A stretch of DNA of 54,396 nucleotides from the sequence record PP925836.1. The stretch is one strand, 5' to 3'. Shown here in pieces: positions 46,648 to 48,938 of this stretch; positions within the stretch are counted from its first letter, which is position 1; each line of letters starts with the position of its first letter. Under the pieces are notes generated by a model. The model was not told where the DNA came from, made no database searches, and worked only from the letters and a program-made list of their open reading frames with translations. The translations under genes were made by a program, and so were the position numbers. The DNA comes from Escherichia phage MagusPhagus.

Positions 46648-47412
46648 TCAGTCCGGCAAAACGCGGTTGAGCGTAGTACGATTGATGGCCCGGTCGTTAG
46701 CCAGGAATACAGCACGGGCGAAGCCACGCGGCGTTAGTGAGCGGATCATCTTTGTTCGCTTTGATTTTCCGCCTAACTTCGCGTGCTGCTTACTGTCTTC
46801 CCATTCATCTGGCATCGGCACAGGACGGAATAGCGGCTGCTTAAATCCATTCCCGCACCAAATACAAGTTTTCTTCGTGTAGGCGTCGCGGTCGGCAATG
46901 TATTCCGGGAAAGCGGGATGCTTATCATCTTCCGGCAGGTAGCCACCGTAAGCGCACGGATTGAAGATAAAATCCGGTTTACGCCATAACGTTGACAGTG
47001 CGCCCACCGGATTTTCCACCATCCACGGCACGTTATGCATATTCGCCAGTTTTTCTACCAGTTTTGCGTTATGCGCCGCCTTCACCTGGAAGTCAGGGTC
47101 TTTTTTCCGTTTATCAGCGAACCAGCGAGCGCCTGAAACGGCGAGATTGTCGCATGGAGGAAAGCCCAGGATAATGTCAGGATCTGGATATACAGACAAT
47201 TCAGGGGAGAACATTACCAGAAAATGGCTATCAATCCAGACGTTAACATATTCAATATTTGGATGAATTATTTTTACCCCGTCATAATCACCGTGATTAG
47301 CGCCGTCATAGTTGAAGCAATAACATTTATAACCAGCGTCCGCCCAATCTTTAACGGCGTACCCGCTGCCGTCATACAGCGACCACACCACCCAATTTCT
47401 AATCCCGCTCAT
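46648..47412 (-). CDS. Short DNA cytosine-C5 methyltransferase-like protein
   Basis: 254 aa; motif I-like SLYDGSGYA, catalytic motif IV-like GFPPCDNLAVSG (Pro-Cys), motif VI-like ENPVG. Confidence 0.5.
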   Translation of the reverse strand: MSGIRNWVVWSLYDGSGYAVKDWADAGYKCYCFNYDGANHGDYDGVKIIHPNIEYVNVWIDSHFLVMFSPELSVYPDPDIILGFPPCDNLAVSGARWFADKRKKDPDFQVKAAHNAKLVEKLANMHNVPWMVENPVGALSTLWRKPDFIFNPCAYGGYLPEDDKHPAFPEYIADRDAYTKKTCIWCGNGFKQPLFRPVPMPDEWEDSKQHAKLGGKSKRTKMIRSLTPRGFARAVFLANDRAINRTTLNRVLPD

Positions 47413-47954
47413 TTCCTACCCTCAAACGTGAAGTAGCGGCGCATGATGATAGTAATCACCGTTACCGCTGCCATTTTTGAGATGAATTGCATAGCTGATA
47501 TTTCCGGCATAAATGCCATAAACGATAGCGTCGGGAAAATTAACGCATCACCTATGGCGGACGCTATATTTGCAGGCCAACGTTTAGAATCAAAGTCACC
47601 AGGCAAAACCCGGTAAACGCCGCCAGAAATAAGCGCACCGGAAACAACCGCGACAAATGACGCGATCGCCACCATTCCGGCGTCGTAATTTATCAGCACA
47701 GTGATTGCGCCAGCGGCGGCGCATGTTGTAGCCGACCATTTCAGGCCGCCGTCATATAACAGGAGGTCACGGATCATCATATTGACACACACGGCGGCTA
47801 CCGTGGTGATCGGAATTACCCACGGGCCGCAATGATTAACAATAAGATTGATGATCACAAAAACGGCGACATAAACGCAGGCTAATAACCTGTCAATTGT
47901 CACCCTTTCCATTTGGATCGTACCTCTTATCATGAATACATTCTGATCTGTCAA
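47409..47954 (-). CDS. Integral membrane protein (181 aa, ~5 TM), possibly a YhhQ/DUF165-like transporter
   Basis: Multiple hydrophobic helices; family assignment tentative. Confidence 0.4.
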   Translation of the reverse strand: MTDQNVFMIRGTIQMERVTIDRLLACVYVAVFVIINLIVNHCGPWVIPITTVAAVCVNMMIRDLLLYDGGLKWSATTCAAAGAITVLINYDAGMVAIASFVAVVSGALISGGVYRVLPGDFDSKRWPANIASAIGDALIFPTLSFMAFMPEISAMQFISKMAAVTVITIIMRRYFTFEGRK

Positions 47955-48405
47955 ACCTCAAATCAAGCCGATTAGTGACCTCACCGTTAAACTTCACAGT
48001 AGGAATTATTTTCCCCGGAATAATCGACGGGTCCGGCCCTGAAATATCAGAGTAAAGTTTTATCCCTCCGCTGATAGGGAGATCAAAAACAGCCTGTTTC
48101 TTTCTTTGTTCTTCCTCCCGCTCCGTTAATATTTGCTCCGCTTTTAGCGCGTTATAGCTAATCAAATCAATTAACGTGTCTGTCGGATCGCTGTTATTGC
48201 TCAAAATGGCTTCTAATCGCGCCTCCTTGAGACAAATTAGCAGATCCCATACATCAAGCGGGGTTAAATCTGCCCCCTTCTTAGCGTTGTAAATAGTGGC
48301 TATTTTTGGCGCTGATTTTTCCTCTTTTTTGTCGTAGCCGTTTTGTTTACCTCTTTGCTCTATGGTTTCCGATGCAAGCCTTAATAAGTCTGTTGCCTTA
48401 GTCAT
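47893..48405 (-). CDS. Hypothetical protein (170 aa) between the two methyltransferase genes
   Basis: ORF; helical N-terminus (LLRLASETIEQRGKQNGYDKK). Confidence 0.35.
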   Translation of the reverse strand: MTKATDLLRLASETIEQRGKQNGYDKKEEKSAPKIATIYNAKKGADLTPLDVWDLLICLKEARLEAILSNNSDPTDTLIDLISYNALKAEQILTEREEEQRKKQAVFDLPISGGIKLYSDISGPDPSIIPGKIIPTVKFNGEVTNRLDLRFDRSECIHDKRYDPNGKGDN

Positions 48406-48938
48406 TGTTCTGAACCTCTCGCATATAGCTCTTTACGTGTTATTTGCGTGAAAATACATTCATGTCTGCAACGTGGATGCCAGATCAAGAACAAGCTCCC
48501 TTTATTGTTTCCACTTGCTGGTTTCCCTGTCGCAGCATTGATAAACGCCAGCCGCCCGCGCGTGATTAATCGGCATTCGTTTGCCGTCTCCACGCCGTTC
48601 ATAAACCAGCTAACAGAAATGTCAGCGGGCAATAACATTACGCATCCGATATGGTTTCGGCTGTGTTCAAGCGCCGCTTTATCAACGAATGGCCCCGGAT
48701 TAGAATATGGTGGATTAAGCCAGACATACTCACCAGGCATTGCCACCGCTCCCCACGGATAATGCAACGTGTCCATTTCTTCTGTTATATATCGCGGGAT
48801 TAATGCGTTTGCCTTGTTTGCCGCCACGTCCGCGACGAATTCGAATTCCCGATCCATTCCTCTAAAAACGGGTTTTGGCGTTTGCCATAAGTCTTTTATT
48901 TCTTTCGGCGTATGGCTGCCGCCGTAATCATTTTTCAT
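48402..48938 (-). CDS. Phage-type DNA N6-adenine methyltransferase (Dam-like)
   Basis: 178 aa; catalytic NPPY motif (YVWLNPPYSNPG). Confidence 0.75.
   Translation of the reverse strand: MKNDYGGSHTPKEIKDLWQTPKPVFRGMDREFEFVADVAANKANALIPRYITEEMDTLHYPWGAVAMPGEYVWLNPPYSNPGPFVDKAALEHSRNHIGCVMLLPADISVSWFMNGVETANECRLITRGRLAFINAATGKPASGNNKGSLFLIWHPRCRHECIFTQITRKELYARGSEQ

Follow-up and report, generated by a model that had tools for sequence, protein, structure and literature searches.

A four-gene early block of an mEp021-type Escherichia coli prophage: two predicted orphan DNA methyltransferases and a YhhQ-family transporter gene lacking its usual DpdA neighbour

The stretch of DNA analysed here, hereafter the window, is the 54,396-nucleotide record PP925836.1, deposited as Escherichia phage MagusPhagus. 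At positions 46648-48938 the list of open reading frames (ORFs) gives four co-directional ORFs on the minus strand. A first-pass annotation, made from the sequence alone, had described them as a DNA-modification cluster comprising a Dam-like adenine methyltransferase, a 170-residue protein without known function, a membrane protein and a short cytosine methyltransferase-like protein, and the four ORFs lie where it had placed them, with the motifs it had reported. The block, in the order of its genes, and the spacer that follows it are composed as follows:

48402-48938, minus strand: gene 1, 178 residues, predicted phage Dam-family N6-adenine DNA methyltransferase (PF05869, TIGR01712)
47893-48405, minus strand: gene 2, 170 residues, DUF6378 protein (PF19905)
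47409-47912, minus strand: gene 3, 167 residues, small membrane protein of the Vut_1/YhhQ transporter family (COG1738), with about six hydrophobic segments
46648-47412, minus strand: gene 4, 254 residues, predicted compact Dcm-like C5-cytosine DNA methyltransferase (PHROG 757, motifs)
46489-46647, minus strand: intergenic spacer downstream of the block, by position equivalent to the predicted terminator t4 and nutR2 region of phage mEp021

Positions 46000-49500 of the window match the chromosome of E. coli 09-00049 (NZ_CP015228.1) with 99.9% identity, and the same region shares 86-89% nucleotide identity with six 'mEp' coliphages including mEp021. According to the RefSeq annotation, strain 09-00049 harbours a prophage of about 54 kb that runs from the integrase to the tail-fibre gene and is inserted in abgT. 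The window comprises the host flank (dbpA to abgT') together with the greater part of the prophage, up to the repressor gene. The NCBI prokaryotic genome annotation pipeline (PGAP) calls a truncated abgT pseudogene at the tail-fibre end (window 8196-9790) and a 99-nucleotide AbgT remnant beside the integrase, outside the window (NZ_CP015228.1 1701507-1701605). The prophage is of the mEp021 type (mEpimmI), a temperate coliphage; a 2025 study describes this group as temperate, non-lambdoid phages that depend on Nus and are common in the gut (PMC11893012).

The four genes are tightly packed. ATGA overlaps are found at the Dam/DUF6378 junction and at the transporter/Dcm-like junction. The longest ORF for gene 3 spans 47409-47954, but translation probably begins at the ATG at 47912, the start called by PGAP, which gives a 20-nucleotide overlap with the DUF6378 gene. 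Comparison with mEp021 yielded ratios of non-synonymous to synonymous substitution rates (dN/dS) of 0.06 for Dam, 0.20 for DUF6378, 0.035 for the transporter and 0.09 for the Dcm-like gene, all indicative of purifying selection. The gene order also recurs in a metagenomic contig with proteins of only 52-65% identity, in which Dam, DUF6378, membrane protein and short methylase genes are followed by NinG, RusA and Q. As selection is purifying and the order recurs in such a divergent contig, the four ORFs are real genes rather than chance ORFs.

In mEp021 the orthologous block (86% nucleotide identity) is gp30-gp33, in the same order, with ipe upstream and NinF, NinG, RusA and Q downstream (GenBank MH706966; PMC11893012). 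It is already annotated there as a putative adenine methyltransferase, a hypothetical protein, a membrane protein and a cytosine methyltransferase; in our case the element is an integrated prophage. The mEp021 block lies between the predicted terminators t3 and t4, the annotated TERM_4 directly following gp33, and nutR2, the third nut site of that phage, is found just 3' of the block, downstream of the cytosine methyltransferase gene (PMC11893012). Because of this position between t3 and t4 with nutR2 just downstream, the block of the window is predicted, by homology to mEp021, to belong to the N-antiterminated early rightward transcript.

Profile searches place the product of gene 1 unambiguously in the phage Dam family, in agreement with the first-pass annotation. 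It matches Pfam PF05869 over positions 1-167 of 169 (E 7.2e-51, 172.7 bits for a cutoff of 28.1) and the NCBIfam equivalog TIGR01712 (140.1 bits for a cutoff of 97.05), and it belongs to PHROG 111. Its catalytic (D/N)PPY motif is NPPY, at residues 75-78. Homologues occur in 1874 of 50,697 phage records, including Shiga toxin (Stx)-converting and T1-like phages. As in other members of the PF05869/TIGR01712 family, the full-length match and the NPPY motif are not accompanied by a cognate nuclease, and PADLOC classifies the protein as an 'orphan methyltransferase' while recognising no other gene of the block. Outside the mEp group, family members are only 37-45% identical to the gene 1 product, the Dam-like protein of phage KarlJaspers being 41% identical, and GATC specificity is assumed. 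The enzyme is thus predicted to generate N6-methyladenine (m6A), probably at GATC by extension from characterised family members. The Dam enzymes of T1 and of Stx phages are GATC-specific. Our literature search on the specificity of PF05869 enzymes gave nothing usable. The paper on the non-specific adenine methylases Hia5/Hin1523 makes no mention of the Dam proteins of T1, VT2 or HP1 and provides no link to the Dam family.

The gene 4 product was considered 'unusually short' in the first-pass annotation, but its size is ordinary for the large phage family to which it belongs. It matches PHROG 757 (E 1.1e-87), and we collected at least 2371 homologues, nearly all of 225-260 residues; those in our alignment and listing have 227-254 residues. 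The family is represented in 1515 of 50,697 phage records, among them T1-like, Dhillonvirus, rV5-like, RB49-like, Klebsiella, Campylobacter and other phages. Judging from this family, then, the compactness of the protein is not anomalous. Its motifs comprise LYDGSG (motif I), the catalytic GFPPCD (Cys87), ENPVG (Glu133), the Lys pair 179-180 and a C-terminal RSLTPRGFARAV. G15, S16, P85, P86, C87, E133, N134 and P135 do not vary among 35 family members, and the family alignment shows DGSG, PPC, ENP and RSLTxRG to be invariant. The catalytic domain has the fold of C5-methyltransferases, the top structural matches being DNA C5-methyltransferases. In a comparison of the family profile with solved structures, the best matches, M.HaeIII and DNMT3B over motifs I-IV, were below threshold (E 0.4-0.9).

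A functional assignment is suggested by a characterised member of the family. Phage K42 has a genome 95.4% identical to that of KarlJaspers (Bas06), and the mutations of its escape mutants fall in a 711-bp 'Dcm' gene. The K42 Dcm introduces 5-methylcytosine (5mC) into the multicopy single-stranded DNA (msDNA) of retron Ec86, as detected by liquid chromatography-mass spectrometry, and it triggers the retron. A CCTGG to AATGG change in the msDNA is part of the evidence for the target site, and the C82A/E128A/K175A/K176A mutant of the enzyme is inactive (bioRxiv 10.1101/2023.08.16.553469 for all these results). The gene 4 product is 59% identical over its full length (E 6e-100) to the protein of bas06_0055, the 711-bp gene of KarlJaspers. 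Its C87, E133, K179 and K180 residues align with the C82, E128, K175 and K176 residues mutated in the K42 enzyme. The two proteins are equally compact (254 and 236 residues), belong to the same PHROG family and have the same catalytic Cys, ENP Glu and Lys pair. The protein of the window differs by short N- and C-terminal extensions and by its occurrence in a temperate, mEp021-type phage instead of a lytic, T1-like one, and its activity is a prediction. By analogy with K42, its product is most likely 5mC, and its target is probably CCWGG, as extrapolated from the K42 relative of the 59%-identical KarlJaspers enzyme.

One might argue instead that the 254-residue protein recognises another sequence, uses another cofactor or modifies RNA. 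It reaches no C5-methyltransferase model of Pfam or NCBIfam, and only 2 of the 120 relatives listed have a precomputed PF00145 match. It is almost devoid of a target-recognition domain, no large domain being found between motifs VIII and IX, with about 20-30 residues separating the strand at 182-187 from the C-terminal helices. Moreover, the characterised enzyme is that of K42, and its KarlJaspers relative shares only 59% identity with the protein of the window. Nevertheless, the family shows no or hardly any variation at the catalytic Cys, the ENP glutamate, the Lys pair and the C-terminal motif, these residues coincide with those whose mutation inactivated the K42 enzyme, and the best structural matches are DNA C5-methyltransferases. 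We therefore consider this alternative to be very unlikely. As an observation on the surroundings of such genes, an HNH homing endonuclease gene is found directly 3' of the Dcm-like gene in the Dhillonvirus Sponge. In a related prophage of E. coli N921, an HNH endonuclease gene is annotated inside the region matching the four-gene module (NZ_CP176484.1 2620089-2623915).

As for the 170-residue product of gene 2, it was left without a function in the first-pass annotation. It matches DUF6378 (Pfam PF19905, 31.9 bits for a cutoff of 27.1), which was the sole family matched by 11 diverse homologues in a permissive Pfam scan. Single-sequence and two profile searches of Protein Data Bank sequences, together with the Pfam scan, revealed no informative functional link. 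A 'phosphofructokinase' label attached to the protein by PHROG was rejected, as no other search here supports it. DUF6378 may resemble all-alpha domains of the MazG/Nmad1 type, which is a lead only.

The alignment of DUF6378 homologues shows a conserved, helical N-terminal domain (residues 1 to about 100) and a mosaic C-terminal half. An AlphaFold2 model has four helices over residues 4-107 and predicted local distance difference test values below 50 over residues 105-160 and 165-170, which suggests that the C-terminal tail is probably disordered. The part of the gene that codes for the tail (window 47893-48090) comes in three or more versions of unrelated sequence in E. coli prophages, next to a nearly invariant N-terminal domain, and it overlaps the start of the transporter gene. 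Homologues of the protein are found in 247 phage records. In five of the six phage lineages inspected (mEp-type, Dhillonvirus, Pantoea phage Nafs113, Enterobacter phage ST22 and Rheinheimera phage Barba21A), a DNA methyltransferase gene is found no more than about 2.5 kb from the DUF6378 gene; in Dhillonvirus, the Dcm-like, PF05869 Dam and DUF6378 genes are in one early operon. The exception is Xanthomonas phage RiverRider.

The membrane protein encoded by gene 3 is, from its sequence relationships, a homologue of the Vut_1/YhhQ family, so that the suggestion of a YhhQ/DUF165-like protein made in the first-pass annotation was right at the family level. Its own match to Pfam PF02592 (Vut_1) is below threshold (12.7 bits for a cutoff of 27.2, E 0.17), while covering positions 6-149 of 152. 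It strongly matches PHROG 4899 (E 5e-47). HMMER relatives of the protein comprise 152 cluster representatives at E <= 1e-3, and 66 of the 69 relatives scanned match PF02592 (best E 1.9e-16), one of them being fused to QueF. Two direct matches of the protein (P0138, E 1.3e-16, and P0143) carry precomputed Vut_1 domains. Its hydropathy profile shows six hydrophobic segments, and the membrane protein in the mEp021 record has six transmembrane segments according to both TMHMM and Phobius. The Vut_1/YhhQ assignment appears neither in the mEp021 record nor in RefSeq.

Compared with the YhhQ/QPTR transporters of preQ0 and preQ1 (COG1738, Vut_1), the gene 3 product shows full-length homology, about six transmembrane segments and the core residues of the family. 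It keeps 15 of 19 family-conserved positions, and R48, D49, N115, D122, Q142 and K146 are retained, whereas H/Q52, S123, A130 and G149-G150 are replaced. With a dN/dS of 0.035 relative to mEp021, it is the most constrained gene of the block, and it is not a decaying remnant.

The genetic context of its relatives is instructive. The genes of the next-closest homologues in isolated phages, at about 35% identity, directly adjoin a DpdA-like gene (phrog_887, E 1e-62 to 1e-86) in the T1-like phages LHE71, RCIP0319 and Opt-719 and in Pectobacterium phage PEAT2. In Acinetobacter phage AB3P2 the transporter match falls under an annotated queuine tRNA-ribosyltransferase feature. A 247-residue neighbour in Opt-719 that had been a candidate Dcm-like protein was rejected as such, as it is DpdA-like. 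Using the transporter family alignment, we retrieved 80 loci from IMG/VR and searched them with a profile built from the DpdA proteins of isolated phages. A same-strand DpdA-like ORF directly adjoins the transporter in 75 of them, and in three of the five exceptions the transporter is at a contig end. Dcm-like and DUF6378 ORFs are present in only two and one of the 80 loci, respectively. Given the adjacency in 75 of 80 loci, the phage transporter clade has DpdA, a 7-deazaguanine DNA transglycosylase, as an almost obligate partner, which fits the annotation of these proteins as preQ0 importers (PMC6884629, PMC7544227).

Two further contexts of transporter genes were noted. In a clade whose transporters are 46% identical to that of the window (metagenomic contigs L007 6516-8258 and L009 780-2534), the transporter gene is followed by two genes for paralogous phrog_2510 proteins and then by an N6_N4 methyltransferase gene (PF01555); on contig L008 these neighbours recur, but the methyltransferase gene is missing. 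In T1-like phages with the transporter-DpdA pair, a conserved ORF of 47 residues, with no counterpart in the window, overlaps the start of the transporter gene:

47-residue ORF: L016 3891-4034, L017 3873-4016, L015 4861-5004, L010 346-489

The transporter of the window is a rare exception to this near-universal pairing. We searched every ORF of at least 50 residues in the window and the remaining 19 kb of the prophage and found no DpdA, the best E values being 0.086 with tblastn and 1.6 with the iterated one of two profile searches. In contrast with the transporter-DpdA modules of PEAT2, LHE71, Opt-719 and CAjan (yhhQ), there is no adjacent DpdA gene here, and the Dcm-like gene occupies the coupled downstream slot. 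T1-type dpdA DNA is absent, at blastn sensitivity, from all 5426 complete E. coli genomes. As for preQ0 synthesis, PGAP names no FolE, QueC, QueD or QueE gene in the whole prophage, for which no dedicated profile search was made, and the larger unannotated early proteins encoded outside the window have no relevant domains.

These results bear on the suggestion of a less common base modification made in the first-pass annotation. In such a reading, the four genes would constitute one pathway, with the transporter bringing in a precursor, for instance preQ0, for installation in phage DNA. In its favour, the membrane protein does belong with Vut_1/YhhQ, DpdA accompanies nearly all of its viral relatives, and the genes are translationally coupled in a conserved order. 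Nevertheless, with no DpdA detected in either the window or the remainder of the prophage, the proposal is left without its key enzyme, and no gene for precursor synthesis is annotated. The neighbouring methyltransferases are of ordinary types, and for one of them a close relative has been shown to make plain 5mC. NdeI cuts the DNA of mEp phages in restriction fragment length polymorphism analyses (PMC11893012), which is weak evidence against global hypermodification. We found no functional link among the four genes, each of which occurs alone in many other phages. Altogether, a coupled base-modification pathway appears highly improbable.

DpdA is lacking around the transporters of four separate clusters, and we compared the window protein with the cluster representatives P0129, P0133 and P0140 to look at these DpdA-less transporters together. 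Position 52, which is His or Gln in 62 of 69 sequences, is Leu, Phe, Phe or Ile in the four proteins; G149-G150 is replaced by AV, TI, SV or AV, and S123 by Ala in three of them. The residues that distinguish the gene 3 product from transporters of the DpdA modules, namely H/Q52, S123 and G149-G150, are otherwise conserved. From these alignments, the DpdA-less transporters look like a small divergent branch, possibly with an altered role, but four sequence clusters provide a lead and not a conclusion.

A role independent of the methyltransferases could be the import of preQ0 or preQ1 for the tRNA queuosine pathway of the host, which would raise the level of queuosine-modified tRNA and the translation capacity. 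This has been proposed for phages that have preQ0-pathway genes but no DpdA (Hutinet et al. 2019, PMC6884629), and phage YhhQ homologues track no single phage group (PMC6884629). Both the retention of R48, D49, N115, D122, Q142 and K146 and the strong selection on the transporter would agree with it. However, as E. coli synthesises preQ0 de novo and also possesses a YhhQ, it is not obvious what would be gained, and the replacement of H/Q52 and G149-G150 in all four DpdA-less transporters, and of S123 in three, argues for an altered function. Moreover, DNA modification in phage CAjan was not measurably altered when yhhQ was deleted (PMC7544227), and the function of a phage YhhQ has therefore never been demonstrated. 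We regard the contribution to tRNA modification as unlikely.

Alternatively, the protein might have been repurposed for something other than nucleobase transport, either to carry another small molecule or as a membrane effector involved in superinfection exclusion or host takeover. Its divergent branch with lost conserved positions, the absence of DpdA around four separate clusters, its small size and its location in an accessory-gene region are in line with this idea. Full-length Vut_1 homology and the conservation of most invariant residues argue against it, and there is no positive evidence for an alternative activity. Such repurposing seems rather improbable as well.

A more speculative proposal, which we find distinctly unlikely, combines both non-methyltransferase genes: the mEpimmI transporter would represent an unrecognised, DpdA-uncoupled sub-branch of Vut_1/YhhQ with a new function, and DUF6378 would be a methyltransferase-associated accessory factor. 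That sub-branch might carry a different nucleobase-like or methyl-cycle compound serving the flanking methyltransferases. It might otherwise manipulate the pool of 7-deazaguanine precursors against DpdA-carrying phages or host Dpd systems.

The reading that we favour, with a probability of roughly 0.6, is that the four genes are an accessory block in the early rightward, N-antiterminated operon of an mEp021-type phage, that two of them encode independent orphan methyltransferases, and that neither DUF6378 nor the transporter is needed for methylation. The Dam and Dcm-like enzymes would act independently on replicating phage DNA, which would become fully marked with m6A and 5mC whatever the Dam and Dcm status of the host. 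The methylated DNA would then be protected from methylation-sensitive restriction. GATC and CCWGG are both found at the expected frequencies in the prophage (202 and 109 sites, respectively), and thus the phage does not avoid these sequences. A likely cost, implied by the K42 work, is that the Dcm-like enzyme could trigger retron Ec86. As for the transporter, it would descend from DpdA-paired phage transporters annotated as preQ0 importers, would have lost its partner and would probably serve another purpose. Its gene and that of DUF6378 would both be accessory.

Several points weigh against this interpretation. With only 59% identity to the KarlJaspers enzyme, the Dcm-like protein may have a different target. 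E. coli has its own Dam and Dcm, so that the benefit of duplicating these activities is assumed. The ATGA coupling and the maintenance of the gene order in a contig with 52-65%-identical proteins indicate that the four genes could cooperate. The proximity of DUF6378 and methyltransferase genes hints at an unexplained link, with the caveat that it comes from six lineages with no phylogenetically corrected background rate. Finally, our DpdA profile was derived from one phage type (phrog_887), and a very different DpdA family could be missed.

As the block was already annotated in mEp021, the first-pass description mostly amounts to a correct account of routine phage genes. New in this work are the connection of the short methylase with a family that has an experimentally characterised member, the family assignment of the membrane protein and the exception to the DpdA pairing. 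The gene 4 product, a 'hypothetical protein' in RefSeq, can be named a putative compact Dcm-like methyltransferase, and the membrane protein a Vut_1/YhhQ-family transporter. By analogy with K42, retron Ec86 would detect these common gut prophages through the Dcm-like gene. To our knowledge, a substrate has never been shown for any phage YhhQ-type protein, and a strongly conserved DpdA-less exception offers a clean system for asking what such transporters carry.

A few other features of the prophage were noted. Directly upstream of the Dam gene, the ORF at 48948-49181 on the minus strand occupies the place that ipe ('inducer of pleiotropic effects') has in mEp021, and overexpression of ipe leads to HlyE-dependent haemolysis (PMC11893012). 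A gene for a 457-residue protein directly after that of the terminase large subunit (32245-33618, minus strand) is annotated in RefSeq as 'anti-CBASS protein Acb1 family protein'. It lies between the terminase and the minor head protein genes, in the usual portal slot, and the name may be a misannotation. Downstream of the block, the Q-like antiterminator (44381-45109, minus strand, 242 residues) contains repeated CxxCxGxG zinc-finger motifs of the DnaJ type, and its homologue in contig L003 has faint matches to the Pfam family DnaJ_CXXCXGXG.

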